Positions 1,939 through 18,269 of a stretch of 28,063 nt of DNA are shown here, piece by piece. The DNA is taken from positions 1-28,063 of IMG/VR virus record IMGVR_UViG_651053023_000002, one strand, 5' to 3'. Positions within the stretch are counted from its first letter, which is position 1; each line of letters begins with the position of its first letter. The notes beneath the pieces are model-generated. The model had not been told where the DNA came from. It searched no databases and saw nothing but the letters and a program-made list of their open reading frames with translations. The stretch is from a virus. Its lineage: Duplodnaviria; Heunggongvirae; Uroviricota; Caudoviricetes. The translations under genes and the position numbers were made by a program.

Positions 1939-1980
1939 TGAACCGCCCCGGGTTTCCTGGAGAGTGTTTTATCTGTGAAC

Positions 1981-2871
1981 TCAGGCTGCCAGATCATTGT
2001 TTCCGATGGAAGCATAATAAGCTTTTTCTGCTTCTGCCGGAGGAGTATGGCCCAGCCTTCCCAGCAATCGTCGATTGTTATACCAGTCCACCCACGTTAG
2101 TGTGGCCAGTTCCACTTCTGCACGGTTTTTCCAGCTCTTACGGTGTATTACCTCCGCTTTGTAAAGACCATTGATGCTCTCAGCCATCGCGTTGTCATAC
2201 GAGTCGCCTGTACTCCCTGTTGATGCCAGTAATCCGGCTTCTTTTAGTCGCTCCGTATAGGCCAGTGACACATACTGAGAGCCTTTATCGCTGTAATGGA
2301 TGGTGCCAGACGGACGACGGGCCCACAACGCCTGCTCCAGCGCATCCAGCACGAATGTCGTTTCCATAGACGATGAGACCCGCCCCCCCACGATGTATCC
2401 GGCAAACACATCAATGATAAACGCCACATAGACGAAGCCCTGCCATGTGCTGACGTAAGTAAAATCAGCCACCCACAGCTGGTCAGGACGTTCTGCCACG
2501 AACTGACGGTTTACGCGGTCACCTGTGGCAACGGTTTTCCGGCTGACGGTAGTGCGGACCTTTTTACCCCGGAGAACACCGGCAAGTCCCATAACCGCCA
2601 TGAGGCGCGCCACTGTACATCTGGCCACCCTGATTCCTTCCCGTAACAACTGACGCCAGACTTTACGCACACCGTACACCTGATGATTTTCATCGTATAC
2701 GCGCTGTATCTCTCTCTTCAGCCAGTCATCGTGCTGCGCACGGGCACTGCGTTTATCCGGATGATGTCGCTGTTGCTGACAATGGTAATACGTTGACGGG
2801 GCAATATGCAGTTCGCTGCATACCGGTCCGACCCCGTACTGCTCACGCAGCTTATCCAGCAGTGGCATCAT
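1981..2871 (-). CDS. IS3-family transposase OrfB (DDE integrase domain), 296 aa
   Basis: [16 protein letters not shown]... with DDE-type catalytic core. Differs from the copy-2 OrfB at 6 residues, including G where copy 2 has W in GWRVSSS. Confidence 0.85.
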
Positions 2872-3194
2872 TTTTTCCAGAGGCGGTCGAACTCCGCCTT
2901 CGCAAAATAAGCGGAAGCCTGGCGAAGGATATCGTTACTGCGGCGCAGTTCACGATTTTCACGTTCCAGCTCTTTCAGACGCTGACGTTCAGCGCTGGTG
3001 AGCCCACCATCACCGCCCCCGGTATCCCGCTCATGCTGGCGAACCCAGACACGCAGAGTCTCCGGCGTACAGCCAATCTTTGGGGCAATGGAACAAATTG
3101 CCGCCCACTGTGAGTCATATTCATCCTGACTTTCCAGAACCATACGAATCGCCCGCTGACGGACTTCGGGGGAAAAACGAGTATTTTTAGTCAT
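2868..3194 (-). CDS. IS3-family transposase OrfA (HTH), 108 aa
   Basis: [22 protein letters not shown]... Identical to the copy-2 OrfA. Overlaps orfB by 4 nt. Confidence 0.85.
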
Positions 3195-3268
3195 CCTGTT
3201 TACCTCTTTCTCAGGGAGTTTAGTCTCCAGGATTTCCGGGGCGGTTCAGATATTATCGTGAGGATGCG

Positions 3269-3949
3269 TCATCGCCATTGCTCCCCAAATACAAAACCAA
3301 TTTCAGCCAGTGCCTCGTCCATTTTTTCGATGAACTCCGGCACCATCTCGTCAAAACTCGCCATGTACTTTTCATTCCGCTCAATCACGACATAATGCAG
3401 GCCTTCACGCTTCATGCGCGGGTCATAGTTGGCAAAGTACCAGGCATCTTTTCGCGTCACCCACATGCTGTACTGCACCTGGGCCATGTAAGCCGATTTT
3501 ATTGCCTCGAAACCACCGAGCCGGAATTTCATGAAATCCCGGGAGGTAAACGGGCATTTCAGTTCAAGGCCGTTGCCGTCACTGCATAAACCATCGGGAG
3601 AGCAGGCGGTGCGCATACTTTCGTCGCGATAGATGATCGGGGATTCAGTAATATTCACGCCGGAAGTGAATTCAAACAGGGTTCTGGCGTCGTTCTCGTA
3701 CTGTTTTCCCCAGGCCAGCGCCTTAGCATTAACTTCCGGAGCCACACCGGTGCAAACCTCAGCCAGCAGGGTGTGGAAGTAGGACATTTTCATGTCAGGC
3801 CACTTCTTTCCTGAGCGGGGCTTTGCTATCACGTTGTGAACTTCTGAAGCGGTGATGACGCCGAGCCGTAATTTGTGCCATGCATCATCCCCCTGTTCGA
3901 CAGCTCTCACGTCGATCCCGGTACGCTGCAGGATAATGTCCGGTATCAT
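3269..3949 (-). CDS. exo: Lambda-type exonuclease (Red alpha / Exo), 226 aa, apparently intact
   Basis: Near-identical to lambda Exo as recalled ([40 protein letters not shown]...GEQWR). ATGA overlap with the upstream bet-derived ORF. Confidence 0.9.
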
Positions 3950-4326
3950 GCTGCCACCTTCTGCTCAGTGGCTTTCTGTTTCAGGAATCCAAGAGCTTTC
4001 ACTGCTTCGGCCTGTGTCAGTTCTGACGATGCGCGAATGTCGCGGCGAAATATCTGGGAACAGAGCGGCAATAAGTCGTCATCCCATGTTTTATCCAGGG
4101 CGATCAGCAGAGTGTTAATCTCCTGCATGGTTTCATCGTTAATGGCTTTTTTGCTGGCCCCGTGGCGTTGCAAATGATCGATGCATAGCGATTCAAACAG
4201 GTGCTGGGGCAGGCCTTTTTCCATGTCGTCTGCCAGTTCTGCCTCTTTCTCTTCACGGGCGATCTGCTGGTAGTAACGCGCCCAGCTCTGAGCCTCAAGA
4301 CGATCCTGAATGTAATAAGCGTTCAT
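3946..4326 (-). pseudogene. In-frame gam'::'bet deletion fusion: GamS N-terminal ~60 aa joined to Bet C-terminal ~66 aa
   Basis: Residues 1-60 ([60 protein letters not shown]) match lambda Gam. Residues 61-126 ([58 protein letters not shown]...) match the lambda Bet C-terminus. Junction near 4146. Confidence 0.8.
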
Positions 4327-4401
4327 GGCTGAACTCCTGAAAATGGCTGTGAAAATATCGCCCGCGAAATGCCAGGCTGATTAGGAAAACAGGAAAGGGG
4401 A

Positions 4402-4608
4402 TTAGCGATTCAGGCCGTTACCGCGTCCGTCGAGAAAAACTTCCACGAGCAAATCACGGGTATAAGTGCGCTCGATGCCGCGATGCAGATAAAGCCGTCC
4501 GCGTAAATTAGCTGATGCAGTCCAGGTACCATCTTTGTGTTTGACCAGCATTCCTGGCATGACCGCACCTCGATTAACGGTCTGCGTTCCGTAATGTTGA
4601 TGAACCAT
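4402..4608 (-). CDS. KilR-like small protein (68 aa), Rac-prophage KilR family; the six-frame ORF 4402..4812 is probably an over-extension
   Basis: [66 protein letters not shown] aligns with Rac KilR as recalled ([34 protein letters not shown]...VFLGRDGLP). The internal ATG has an AGGAG Shine-Dalgarno 7 nt upstream; the longer ORF starts at TTG without one. Confidence 0.6.
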
Positions 4609-4829
4609 AAAAACTCCTGCCCGTAAGCTGGGCTGCTGAACATATAGAGACTTCTGCGCGTATTCAGGCGGTGGATGGCCGCCGGTTGTCATAACTAAGC
4701 CGCCTCGTTGAAGCGACTGAGGTATAAAGTGTTGTGTTGATTTCAGCTGGTCACACCGACGTTCACGCGTCCGTTTCACCCCTCGCACTCCCCGAAGCCT
4801 GCTGAAATTCAAACTGCGGATCTAAGCGG

Positions 4830-4881
4830 TCATCGCAACGGTGAAACAGGTGGTTACCGTATCGTTGTGTCGTTGCGATGA
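4830..4881. promoter_or_regulatory. 11-bp perfect inverted repeat (TCATCGCAACG / CGTTGCGATGA) with 30-nt spacer between pL/OL and kilR-like
   Basis: Seen directly. No U-run follows on either strand, so it is not a classic intrinsic terminator. Candidate protein-binding palindrome or leader RNA structure. Confidence 0.35.
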
Positions 4882-4889
4882 ATTTATTT

Positions 4890-4965
4890 AAAACTATAGT
4901 TGTTTTATCGTCAACAACAAAAGTTGTTTTATCGGTTGTTTTAAATATAACTGGTTGTATTTAGG
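4890..4965 (-). promoter_or_regulatory. Putative OL operator cluster and pL promoter
   Basis: Multiple copies of the (T)GGTTGTT / AACAAC half-site (4898-4904, 4912-4918, 4922-4928, 4935-4941, 4952-4958). The same motif forms the palindrome in OR. Lies just upstream of the leftward operon. Confidence 0.55.
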
Positions 4966-5047
4966 ATGGATTTATTTTGTGACTTGCATCGCATAGCGAT
5001 AACTGAAGTGAGGTGTGGTGGTTTTTTGGACGGTATGAGTTATGAGG

Positions 5048-5080
5048 GGGAGGAAAAGAAAACCCGGCGCGGTTGCCGGG
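5048..5080 (-). terminator. Rho-independent terminator downstream of the lipoprotein gene
   Basis: Hairpin CCCGGCGCGGTTGCCGGG (5063-5080), followed on the minus-strand transcript by UUUUCUUUUCC. Confidence 0.7.
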
Positions 5081-5088
5081 TATGATTA

Positions 5089-5469
5089 TCAGTCAGCCCA
5101 ACCTGATTTCGAGTTTATTTGGGTTTCTGACATTGTGTATTTCTTAATCGTGTCATCGTTAAAAAGAATAGTAAGTTCTTTTTTCGTACCGTTCGTTCCG
5201 TTATGGAATAATCCATAGAATGGAATAAAAGTGGTGCCATTAACTTTTACTTTTGCAAAGGCGTACTTCCAGATCTCCTTTCCACTGTCAGTATATGAAA
5301 CAGCATCAGGAGAACCAAAGTAAGATTTAACCTCATTCTTGGTTGTTTTACCTTCCTGAAGTTTAGACTGGACACTAATTTCAGTTTCATTTTTGAGTTG
5401 CTGGTTGCCTGAAGAAGCACACCCAGCCAATACAGATGCCATCATGGCAGCGATTAGGATTTTTCTCAT
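5089..5469 (-). CDS. Lipoprotein (126 aa) in the cI-proximal rexAB position; candidate superinfection-exclusion or defence moron
   Basis: Signal peptide with lipobox MRKILIAAMMASVLAG-C. Mature part is Lys/Thr-rich with weak BamE/SmpA_OmlA-like pattern. Same strand as and downstream of cI, with its own terminator. Confidence 0.6.
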   Translation of the reverse strand: MRKILIAAMMASVLAGCASSGNQQLKNETEISVQSKLQEGKTTKNEVKSYFGSPDAVSYTDSGKEIWKYAFAKVKVNGTTFIPFYGLFHNGTNGTKKELTILFNDDTIKKYTMSETQINSKSGWAD

Positions 5470-5698
5470 TTTATGTTTCCATTCATTATAATCAGAAACA
5501 TCTTAACATAATGATTCGAAATAAAAACCGCTACGAGATAGGGAGACATTTTGCTGACAGTAGCAACAAATCTCAGCTAACAACGAGAATATTTACTGAA
5601 ATATGCAAACAGATTTGGCGTTCTTATAGAGAATTTAGTGCAATATCTAATCCGAGTGGTATAAACCTTAACCTTCGCTCCCTTAAGTCGTAGATAAA

Positions 5699-6388
5699 TT
5701 AACCATGCTTCCTGTACGTCTGCGGCATGCTTCCAATGACCTTACCGAATATGAACACCCGGTTCATCTCGTCTTTCTCGATCGGGTCCCACGGCGAGTA
5801 GCTCTTGTTATCAGAGATAACCAGCAGCTTATCCTTCATCATTTGAAGACGTTTTACATGGGCAGTGTCGTCGTACAGAAACGCATAGATGCCATCACCG
5901 TCGAAAGATTTAACAGTGATATCAACGAACAGCAGGTCACCTGGTTCGATCGTCCCTGACATGCTGTCACCTCGCACGTTAATGATGCGGATATTTTCCG
6001 CCTTCCTGCCATCGAACATGTGACGAGCATCGTCAAACGAGTACTCAACCGAGCGTAGAACTTCTACAAACTCACGGTTGATTACACCTGGCCCGGCACT
6101 GACTTCTATATCAAGAACGTCAATTTTGAAGTATTTGGAATGGCTGACAGTTGATTGTATTGGTTGCACTGTACTGTCTGACATATTTCCAACGCCAGAA
6201 GATAACCATTCTGCGCGTACACCCAAAGCGTTCGCGATCTCCACGATTTTAGTTGTTTGGTTAGCTTTCCCTGTTTCGATTTTCTGAATAGCAGCCTGGC
6301 TAACCCCGACCAAATCCCCAAGCGCCTTTTGTGTAAGGCCTCGCGCTAATCTGGCTTCTTTAAGTCTTTCTGAGAGTGTTGTTTTCAT
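5699..6388 (-). CDS. cI: CI-type prophage repressor (HTH_XRE plus S24 LexA-like autopeptidase), 229 aa
   Basis: N-terminal HTH (LTQKALGDLVGVSQAAIQKIETGK). Ala-Gly cleavage site (VSAGPG). Catalytic Ser in GDSM and Lys in HVKRL. Divergent from the cro-like gene. No SD before the ATG, consistent with a leaderless pRM transcript. Confidence 0.85.
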   Translation of the reverse strand: MKTTLSERLKEARLARGLTQKALGDLVGVSQAAIQKIETGKANQTTKIVEIANALGVRAEWLSSGVGNMSDSTVQPIQSTVSHSKYFKIDVLDIEVSAGPGVINREFVEVLRSVEYSFDDARHMFDGRKAENIRIINVRGDSMSGTIEPGDLLFVDITVKSFDGDGIYAFLYDDTAHVKRLQMMKDKLLVISDNKSYSPWDPIEKDEMNRVFIFGKVIGSMPQTYRKHG

Positions 6389-6492
6389 AGATCAAATGTA
6401 CAACCAAGGTTTTATTTCATCAAACGAAAATGGTTGTTGACTAAAAACAACCATAGTTTTAATCTTGATTCGGATTAACCACGGAGGTTGTT
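6389..6492. promoter_or_regulatory. OR operator region with divergent pRM/pR promoters
   Basis: 23-bp palindrome TGGTTGTTgactaaaAACAACCA (6431-6453), plus half-sites ACAACCA (6400-6406) and GGTTGTT (6486-6492). Lies between divergent cI and cro. Confidence 0.65.
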
Positions 6493-17055: not shown

Positions 17056-17382
17056 ATGACTAAAAATACTCGTTTTTCCCCCGAAGTCCGTCAGCGGGCG
17101 ATTCGTATGGTTCTGGAAAGTCAGGATGAATATGACTCACAGTGGGCGGCAATTTGTTCCATTGCCCCAAAGATTGGCTGTACGCCGGAGACTCTGCGTG
17201 TCTGGGTTCGCCAGCATGAGCGGGATACCGGGGGCGGTGATGGTGGGCTCACCAGCGCTGAACGTCAGCGTCTGAAAGAGCTGGAACGTGAAAATCGTGA
17301 ACTGCGCCGCAGTAACGATATCCTTCGCCAGGCTTCCGCTTATTTTGCGAAGGCGGAGTTCGACCGCCTCTGGAAAAAATGA
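17056..17382 (+). CDS. IS3-family transposase OrfA, 108 aa
   Basis: Identical to the copy-1 OrfA. Confidence 0.85.
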
Positions 17383-18269
17383 TGCCACTGCTGGATAAGC
17401 TGCGTGAGCAGTACGGGGTCGGACCGGTATGCAGCGAACTGCATATTGCCCCGTCAACGTATTACCATTGTCAGCAACAGCGACATCATCCGGATAAACG
17501 CAGTGCCCGTGCGCAGCACGACGACTGGCTGAAGAGAGAGATACAGCGCGTATACGATGAAAATCATCAGGTGTACGGTGTGCGTAAAGTCTGGCGTCAG
17601 TTGTTACGGGAAGGAATCAGGGTGGCCAGATGTACAGTGGCACGTCTCATGGCGGTTATGGGACTTGCCGGTGTTCTCCGGGGTAAAAAGGTCCGTACGA
17701 CCATCAGCCGGAAAGCCGTTGCCGCAGGCGACCGCGTAAACCGTCAGTTCGTGGCAGAACGACCTGACCAGCTGTGGGTGGCTGATTTTACTTACGTCAG
17801 CACATGGCAGGGCTTCGTCTATGTGGCGTTTATCATTGATGTGTTTGCCGGATACATCGTGGGGTGGCGGGTCTCATCGTCTATGGAAACGACATTCGTG
17901 CTGGATGCGCTGGAGCAGGCGTTGTGGGCCCGTCGTCCGTCTGGCACCATCCATCACAGCGATAAAGGCTCTCAGTATGTGTCACTGGCCTATACGGAGC
18001 GACTAAAAGAAGCCGGATTACTGGCATCAACAGGGAGTACAGGCGACTCGTATGACAACGCGATGGCTGAGAGCATCAATGGTCTTTACAAAGCGGAGGT
18101 AATACACCGTAAGAGCTGGAAAAACCGTGCAGAAGTGGAACTGGCCACACTAACGTGGGTGGACTGGTATAACAATCGACGATTGCTGGGAAGGCTGGGC
18201 CATACTCCTCCGGCAGAAGCAGAAAAAGCTTATTATGCTTCCATCGGAAACGATGATCTGGCAGCCTGA
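17379..18269 (+). CDS. IS3-family transposase OrfB, 296 aa
   Basis: DDE transposase. Has the W in GWRVSSS where copy 1 has G. Confidence 0.85.

Follow-up and report, generated by a model that had tools for sequence, protein, structure and literature searches.

Does the long open reading frame (ORF) that lies directly before the gam remnant of a decayed lambdoid prophage encode one extended protein, or does it contain a shorter gene that begins at an internal methionine, behind a leader that is not translated? This question is raised by positions 4402-4812, on the minus strand, of the virus record IMGVR_UViG_651053023_000002, a stretch of 28,063 nucleotides (nt) that is called the window here. 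A sequence-only reading of this stretch had proposed that the C-terminal 68 residues of a 136-amino-acid (aa) ORF opening at TTG, which is indeed present in the ORF list, are a gene related to kilR of the Rac prophage. In all likelihood, a KilR-family kil gene is present in intact form at positions 4402-4608, encoding 68 aa from the ATG at 4608; the 204 nt before it would belong, untranslated, to a leader of ~270 nt that starts from pL, and kil would be the first early-left gene, not preceded by an N gene. The FtsZ target of its product and the role of the motif in its leader are what we infer in addition. The features on which this answer depends are the following.

4402-4812, minus strand: mechanical ORF of 136 aa with a TTG start, from the program-made ORF list
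4402-4608, minus strand: kil, 207 nt, a 68-aa KilR-family protein, with ATG at 4608-4606 and the stop codon TAA at 4404-4402
4614-4618, minus strand: Shine-Dalgarno (SD) sequence AGGAG, followed by five T and then by ATG (5-nt spacer), read directly
4810-4812, minus strand: TTG with which the 136-aa ORF opens, not accepted as a start codon (no SD; start not conserved outside the lineage)
4609-4879, minus strand: predicted 5′ leader of the pL transcript, holding the 68 extra codons (conservation, no coding signal, frame broken in relatives)
4660-4728, minus strand: conserved structured RNA motif of 69 nt (covariance model R1, 92.7 bits, single copy in the window)
4753-4797, minus strand: Arg-rich codons RLRGVRGVKRTRERR, judged to be untranslated leader and not an N-type arginine-rich motif (no N family match)
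4886-4914, minus strand: predicted pL, with -35 TTGACG at 4914-4909, a 17-nt spacer and -10 TTAAAT at 4891-4886, read from the sequence

The kil gene: family and start codon

Judged by a significant full-length profile match, the 68-aa product is a member of the KilR family in the broad sense of PHROG 294 and PF27398. It matched PHROG 294 ("Kil protein for bacterial septation inhibition") over profile positions 13-79 of 83 with an E of 1.7e-37, and the NCBIfam model of the KilR subfamily, NF008465 (PRK11354, "FtsZ inhibitor protein"), over positions 1-67 of 73 (E 3.6e-17, 62.1 bits), while the precomputed label PF27398 was present on 120 of the 120 homologues listed. The first 68 residues of the 136-aa ORF had no match in NCBIfam or PHROG. 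The copy of Pfam that was searched did not include PF27398, and gave no matches for the 68-aa product, the 136-aa ORF or Rac KilR itself. In BLASTP, the relation to KilR proposed from the letters alone was confirmed, with 36% identity to Rac KilR (kilR from MG1655) over 61 residues (1-61), a pairwise E of 9e-13, and Met1 aligned with Met1 (MVHQHYGT and MIAHHFGT). Kil of phage phi80 is similar both to the window protein (40% identity, BLASTP E 5e-15) and to KilR (41%), and therefore connects the two subfamilies. The window protein had no Pfam match at E up to 1, including PF06301 (Lambda_Kil), for which Kil of phage 2B8 served as a positive control (E 1.2e-18). The family is found in 146 phage records, including HK225, mEp237, HK639, phi80 and many Stx2a phages, most of its full-length members have 65-73 aa, and a profile search of 1.84 billion representative proteins returned only 78 clusters at E up to 1e-3.

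The AlphaFold2 (AF2) model of the 68-aa product, whose pLDDT is 84.6, has six strands at residues 8-12, 20-24, 27-35, 38-43, 46-50 and 54-59, and low confidence at residues 1-7 and 60-68. Such a model shows the features expected of the family, namely ~65-75 aa, a core of beta-sheet and disorder at both ends, in a short N-terminal stretch and in a C-terminal tail, and the modelled fold is that of a small SH3-like beta-barrel followed by a tail that is flexible. A search of a viral fold library with this model returned one likely homologue only. Rac KilR (b1352, 73 aa), an inhibitor of FtsZ and MreB, would be alike in size class, beta core and disordered tail. In KilR, the disordered tail that follows the beta core is essential for toxicity in a length-dependent manner, and removal of three tail residues uncouples the inhibition of elongation from that of division (PMC12482147). 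The window protein ends in NGLNR, with R encoded at 4405-4407, most close relatives end in NGLNH, and the R is common to strain EC42405 and phage Turner.

In regard to the start codon, we conclude on comparative grounds that translation begins at the internal ATG at 4608 and that the 204 nt upstream are not translated. The sequence-only reading had placed an AGGAG 7 nt from this methionine; the SD is there (4618-4614), and the spacer is 5 nt as read. It had also stated that the TTG lacks an SD, in agreement with the 20 nt 5′ of the TTG (gaccgcttagatccgcagt), which hold no GGAG- or GAGG-type motif. The chance of finding 71 sense codons upstream of the methionine is ~3% per frame, and the open frame is therefore not coding evidence by itself. 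Database homologues of 83-116 aa are extended at the N-terminus by stretches that bear no relation to each other, and all converge on MVHQHYGT. Likewise, at 21 of 21 loci from other genera, which include Citrobacter, Leclercia, Klebsiella, Siccibacter and Raoultella, the protein begins at the same methionine, 5-9 nt after a GGAG- or GGGG-type run. An in-frame stop lies 1-4 codons upstream of it at six of these loci, and at nine of the 21 the open upstream frame contains no start codon of any kind.

Furthermore, the two halves of the long ORF differ in how they vary. Among 78 near-identical viral loci, which were picked by protein identity, a choice that biases the kil half, 17 of the 19 segregating sites in kil are at codon position 3, while the 28 sites in the upstream 204 nt are spread as 12, 6 and 10 over positions 1, 2 and 3, showing no third-position bias (Fisher p 3e-4 for the contrast). 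The upstream changes comprise 12 synonymous and 16 non-synonymous ones and 1 stop, and 24 of the 28 sites fall between -204 and -91. A second sample, picked by DNA similarity, consisted of nine sequences (eight phages and EC42405); there, position 3 accounts for 10 of 12 sites in kil and 7 of 14 upstream (p 0.11). The codon contrast alone is not significant in this set, and the start-site argument is carried there by variants that break the frame. The long frame is broken in four of the nine close relatives, and the 68-aa frame is intact in all nine. The T-run that precedes the ATG is longer by one T in PhiR30_1 and carries a deletion in Turner, both changes shifting the frame next to the SD; in PhiR70_1 and PhiR5_1, codon -37 is a stop. 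The kil gene is intact in all four.

The kil gene is already known, and it is correctly annotated in RefSeq. Window positions 4300-5100 are 100% identical to several complete E. coli chromosomes, and matches are found in 3183 of 5426 complete E. coli genomes. In strain EC42405, whose DNA is identical over these positions, RefSeq has a 207-nt coding sequence (CDS) with the same start and stop, WP_000233577.1, named "phage encoded cell division inhibitor protein"; the gene is the same, and the window prophage is the more decayed of the two, by an insertion sequence (IS) and a gam-bet deletion. The GenBank annotation has 68 aa in 4A7, HK225 and KO-TP1, 93 aa in Turner, 96 aa in PhiR70_1 and PhiR5_1, 125 aa in PhiR26_1 and 139 aa in Perceval. 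The warning that the gene may be mis-annotated as a larger protein thus applies to several GenBank phage records and not to RefSeq, which names the exact 68-aa CDS. Gene callers driven by ORF length, and these GenBank records, over-extend kil by 25-71 codons, which calls for caution. In phage 2B8 (L236, 1603-1866) the lambda-type Kil is annotated with 87 aa and the Lambda_Kil domain covers only residues 42-72; lambda-type kil genes may be over-extended likewise.

Alternative targets and alternative starts

By analogy with Rac KilR, the product would block assembly of the FtsZ ring, and perhaps act on MreB, so that cell division would stop during lytic growth. This mechanism is taken over from that of the family (PMC12482147; PMC5793797).

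Several points weigh against the account given so far. We infer the FtsZ target of the window Kil from an identity of 36-40%. The score of 62.1 bits is below the curated NF008465 cutoff of 92 bits, placing the product outside the narrow KilR subfamily by the NCBI rule, and its tail (DGRGNGLNR) is ~3 residues shorter than that of KilR and unrelated to it in sequence. A literature search found no published experiment on this Kil subfamily. The long frame is open in 69 of 80 near-identical relatives, and there could be some translation from an upstream ATG at 4692-4690, giving a 96-aa form. In addition, the proposed pL went unflagged in the promoter scan, and its -10 matches at only four of six positions.

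The alternative that survives best is that the protein is a relative of KilR and not an FtsZ inhibitor, its target being MreB only or something unrelated, which we regard as improbable without dismissing it. It is favoured by the score below the cutoff, by the lack of conservation of the tail that carries activity in KilR, and by the literature result given above. Against it stand the homology over the full length with the same predicted fold and tail architecture, an operon position which is that of lambda kil, phi80 kil and Rac kilR, and the consistent functional names in NCBI and PHROG, though names are not tests.

A second alternative concerns the conserved AUG inside the RNA motif (4692-4690), which could be translated into a 96-aa Kil isoform (MTTGGHPPP...) in this lineage and, in other phages, open a short regulatory upstream ORF whose translation would modulate the leader, for instance by covering a site where Rho loads. 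GUUAUGA is invariant in the 71 motif versions among the matches listed, a GAGG lies 10 nt upstream of the AUG, the 96-aa form represents a large database cluster (P0005), and MTTGGHPPP recurs in the window, ENT1 and KO-TP1, with MTIGGHPPP in HK225. However, indels of 1, 2, 3 and 5 nt just after the AUG shift the frame between versions, so that no peptide is conserved, and the nine codons, which show no synonymous variation, point to a constraint on the nucleotides themselves. Both the AUG and its GAGG are paired in a predicted hairpin, and in PhiR30_1 and Turner kil is in a different frame from this AUG. Such translation appears quite unlikely. A conserved leader peptide MTTGGHPPP acting through polyproline stalling was rejected on the grounds of the same frame-changing indels.

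It is very hard to believe that the long ORF itself, as the 136-aa form from TTG, a 125-aa form from GTG or a 139-aa form, is a real product, that is, Kil with an Arg-rich N-terminal extension. In the window, as in the majority of the near-identical viral loci mentioned above, 71 codons pass without a stop, and longer forms are annotated in several GenBank records, but the TTG has no SD, the extensions are unrelated among relatives, stops lie 1-4 codons upstream of the methionine in other genera, frameshifts or a stop interrupt the extension in four relatives that all keep kil, the stretch lacks third-position bias, and it is taken up by an RNA structure whose variation keeps base pairs and not peptide sequence. 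Finally, the idea that the Arg-rich codons are a remnant or a variant of an N-type antiterminator can be practically dismissed, since its KRTRERR, which we take to resemble the arginine-rich motif of lambda N, and its position as the first ORF after pL, the usual slot of N, are set against the lack of any match in Pfam or PHROG, of any alignment to phi80 N even at E 100, of any boxA- or boxB-type site recognised by eye in the leader and of codon-position bias or other coding constraint, in a frame that is broken in relatives. No membership of the upstream 68 codons among N-type antiterminators was thus found, in line with the remark of the sequence-only reading that these residues, which are present, could be mistaken for an N motif.

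The predicted pL transcript and the RNA motif in its leader

The region between the repressor gene and kil contains the following further features.

5699-6388, minus strand: cI-type repressor with a helix-turn-helix (HTH) domain and an S24 peptidase domain (Pfam Peptidase_S24 E 1.2e-18, HTH_3 E 5.4e-13)
5089-5469: BamE-like lipoprotein gene between cI and pL
5062-5081, minus strand: intrinsic terminator upstream of pL, at the end of the cI-lipoprotein transcript (terminator scan: 7-bp stem with 6 GC pairs, T-run)
4880-4968, no strand: operator block oL, immunity-specific, in which AGTTGTTTTATCG occurs as a direct repeat (4892-4910, 4916-4934)
4619-4633, minus strand: small hairpin GCCC-AGCUUAC-GGGC abutting the SD, found by comparison with relatives

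The exact position of pL is a predicted one, for which the pattern of conservation is the principal guide. Compared with the heteroimmune phage 4A7, the DNA is near-identical save one block of ~95 nt at ~4880-4968, where 56 of 95 columns are variable, and conservation resumes at TCGCAAC (~4878), a few bases past the promoter-like pair. One strongly divergent block in comparison with heteroimmune phages is the pattern of an immunity-specific operator. Within it, the 19 nt at 4888-4906 are 95% complementary to 6444-6462 on the pR side, inside a 29-nt match at 72%; the pR-side counterpart region spans 6419-6462. The pL/oL region is ~800 nt to the left of cI, past the lipoprotein gene and its terminator, and no acceptable -35/-10 pair was seen by eye within or after that terminator. 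The gene between cI and the oL block varies among phages: a lipoprotein is encoded here, and elsewhere HipA, membrane proteins or a protein of the ASCH type. This gene thus occupies the rexAB-like slot. Turner has none, with the pL block directly after cI. Related to this, annotated phi80 has cI, gene 40A and then operators and pL, and would resemble the window in having pL and its operators after an accessory gene downstream of cI. With the predicted pL beyond the lipoprotein gene, kil comes first among the early-left genes, N is absent, and the extra codons fall within the leader of ~270 nt.

A segment of ~60-80 nt of this leader was found by BLAST to be common to HK225 and to Enterobacter and Klebsiella phages, and it corresponds to the 69-nt motif. 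The motif consists of an invariant CAUACC, a 9-bp hairpin with varying sequence whose pairing is kept, an invariant YAGUUAUGA and an invariant hairpin GCGGCYAUCCACCGC. A pattern scan of viral contigs gave at least 120 motif loci, with 71 distinct versions among the matches listed. In the twelve versions from which covariance model R1 was built, 94% pairing is found and five pairs have compensatory changes, which 0 of 500 shuffles equalled, and pairing drops to 30-51% in slid registers. Among the 71 versions, in an alignment fitted to the model and thus favouring the structure, pairing holds in 97.7% of cells, and covariation is seen at six pairs of hairpin 1, each of them occurring as up to six types of pair, a result reached by 0 of 500 shuffles. 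The occurrence of G-U pairs, one of them invariant, places the structure on the kil-sense RNA. The case for a structure rests on covariation, because thermodynamic folding of the leader was no better than that of shuffles (z -0.78 and +0.14). Rfam gave no match at gathering scores for the window and 18 related loci, with only chance-level hits at E up to 10, and a full-text literature search for the motif sequence string found none. Within hairpin 2, CTATCCACC resembles a DnaA box.

The position of the motif also points away from a specific link to kil. Outside the type present in the window, it lies nearly always 0-10 nt past the T-run of an intrinsic terminator among the matches listed, and the conserved leader runs on, via the small hairpin, to the SD and the start of the first downstream ORF, which is kil in some phages and any of a dozen unrelated genes in others. 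At the place of this putative small hairpin before the ORF, relatives have GCGC...GCGC, GCC...GGC or GCCC...GGGC. A KilR-family gene follows the motif at 85-960 nt in most loci among the matches listed, and R1 searches found the motif to be missing from 15 of 21 diverse kil loci and from Rac. As the motif is often without kil next to it, and kil often without the motif, it would be the leader of an accessory-gene block and not of kil as such.

In phi80 (L238), R1 matched at 2507-2574 (66.3 bits), which places the motif after N and the annotated rho-independent terminator tL1A (2486-2508); tL1B (2682-2719), annotated as rho-dependent, follows 108 nt further on. In the phi80 record M11919, from 1985, the match at 1366-1433 overlaps the "t-L1 regulatory signal" at 1408-1777, and the leader motif is thus homologous to DNA of the phi80 tL1 terminator region. 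HK225 (L105) has the match at 2501-2569. The C/G ratio of the window leader peaks at 1.73 over 4744-4667, and this peak at the motif is a weak rut-like sign. Our best guess is that the motif could be a rut-like or attenuator module, in which C-rich conserved single strands are split by a hairpin whose pairing is conserved. Lambda tR1 is built as rutA, hairpin and rutB, and Rac kilR is silenced by Rho/NusG. We tentatively favour, as one possibility only, that the 69-nt element represents a cis-acting RNA of a class not yet described in lambdoid phages, that it contributes Rho loading (rut-like) or attenuation to a composite tL1 comparable to lambda tR1, and that it silences toxic early-left genes such as kil unless the transcript is antiterminated or Rho is limiting. 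Gating of kil by Rho, as proposed, would parallel the silencing of Rac kilR.

A known RNA with which the motif was compared is the put RNA of HK022, which measures ~70 nt, has two stem-loops and is made soon after transcription from pL begins, in a phage that lacks N (PMC9378689). The window motif is like it in size, in its two stem-loops and in its place early in the pL transcript of a phage lacking N. It differs in showing no sequence similarity, in being a single copy without a partner on the pR side and in that, in most phages, motifs of this type follow N and tL1 and do not replace them. A put-like antiterminator was accordingly set aside after comparison with the HK022 putL segment gave no similarity, and the likeness by eye between GGGAGCGCGGCGGG and GGGGAGTGCGAGGGG was not supported. 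A KilS-like small RNA (sRNA) was rejected as well, the leader having no similarity to the region upstream of Rac kilR, where R1 has no match. An anti-sRNA of AgvB type, prompted by CACAACA-like runs in the leader, was dropped with nothing in its support.

Some observations concern leaders in other phages. From 2644 onward, phi80 has an unannotated ORF (MSDLELGLKIYALWFVGTF...) that starts exactly at the end of the conserved leader and recurs as the first post-leader ORF in several viral contigs, with the annotated tL1B inside it. A second conserved non-coding stretch (AAAGCATTTCTCCCGCATCAGCGGGTaac...ATG), with a CCCGC-AUCA-GCGGG hairpin, lies at ~2140-2190 in phi80 and upstream of the terminator in L108, L109, L135, L143 and L193. 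It stands before N in phi80 and before unrelated ORFs in other phages, and may be another portable leader. In Rac (L003), KilS (b4833) at 5406-5503 is an sRNA of the 5′ untranslated region with its own terminator, ~175 nt upstream of kilR, so that Rac kilR and the window kil both stand behind long, apparently regulatory and different leaders.

Prophage context and biological meaning

The window is a decayed lambdoid prophage of DLP12 type. The same prophage adjoins a tRNA-Arg gene in EC42405, and the window begins at the integrase. Compared with EC42405, it has a 683-nt deletion at the 1681/1682 junction, a 1310-nt insertion of the IS3 family at 1939-3248, which adjoins exo, and a 704-nt deletion across which Gam residues 1-64 run on in frame into the 3′ end of bet. 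The IS frameshift pseudoknot ALIL occurs at 2797-2913 (minus strand) and 17337-17453 (plus strand), 14.5 kb apart in inverted orientation, with 121.5 bits each. Among complete E. coli genomes in RefSeq, none has exactly this combination of IS and deletions, and the DNA may come from a Shigella or from an E. coli genome that is not finished. The product of the 704-nt deletion is the neighbour of kil.

3946-4326, minus strand: in-frame gam'-'bet fusion (gam remnant) of 126 aa, directly downstream of kil (Pfam Gam positions 1-64 of 98)

The gam remnant is 75 nt from the kil stop codon, and the DNA from gam to this stop is 99% identical in lambda-like phages. In phage 2B8, the lambda-like phage that was checked, a lambda-type Kil (PF06301) occupies the same slot upstream of gam, and KilR-type and lambda-type genes therefore replace each other there, as expected from the sequence-only description of a Rac-type kil in the place of lambda kil, directly upstream of the gam remnant. 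Lambda Kil (47 aa, PF06301), a ZipA-dependent FtsZ inhibitor, would thus share the slot and the expected role with the window Kil without any sequence relation, as a non-orthologous replacement. KilR, on the other hand, acts independently of ZipA (PMC12482147).

Like kilR in Rac, the window kil belongs to a lambdoid prophage's early-left operon, which a repressor controls. The two differ in that recET follow kilR in Rac, whereas gam-bet-exo are present in the window, and in that the kilR leader holds the KilS sRNA and lacks the motif of the window leader. In phi80, whose Kil (PHI80_42, 69 aa) has 40% identity as given above, the RNA motif is also found upstream, but nutL, N and tL1A come before it and other ORFs separate it from kil, whereas in the window the motif is in the pL leader and kil is next.

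These arrangements suggest a course of events in which the S24 repressor would keep pL, and hence kil, shut in the lysogen, and cleavage of the repressor would let pL fire and Kil be made. In a defective prophage such as this one, kil would stay as a latent toxin, as kilR does in Rac. Cloning of the region could be affected, the 68-aa ORF being probably toxic. In terms of prophage domestication, an intact kil and an intact repressor have outlasted the loss of bet and gam and the gain of an IS. The RNA motif of the leader is the only part that may be new. It is widespread in the early-left operon of phi80-like, HK225-like and DLP12-like phages, where it could explain how toxic accessory genes are gated.

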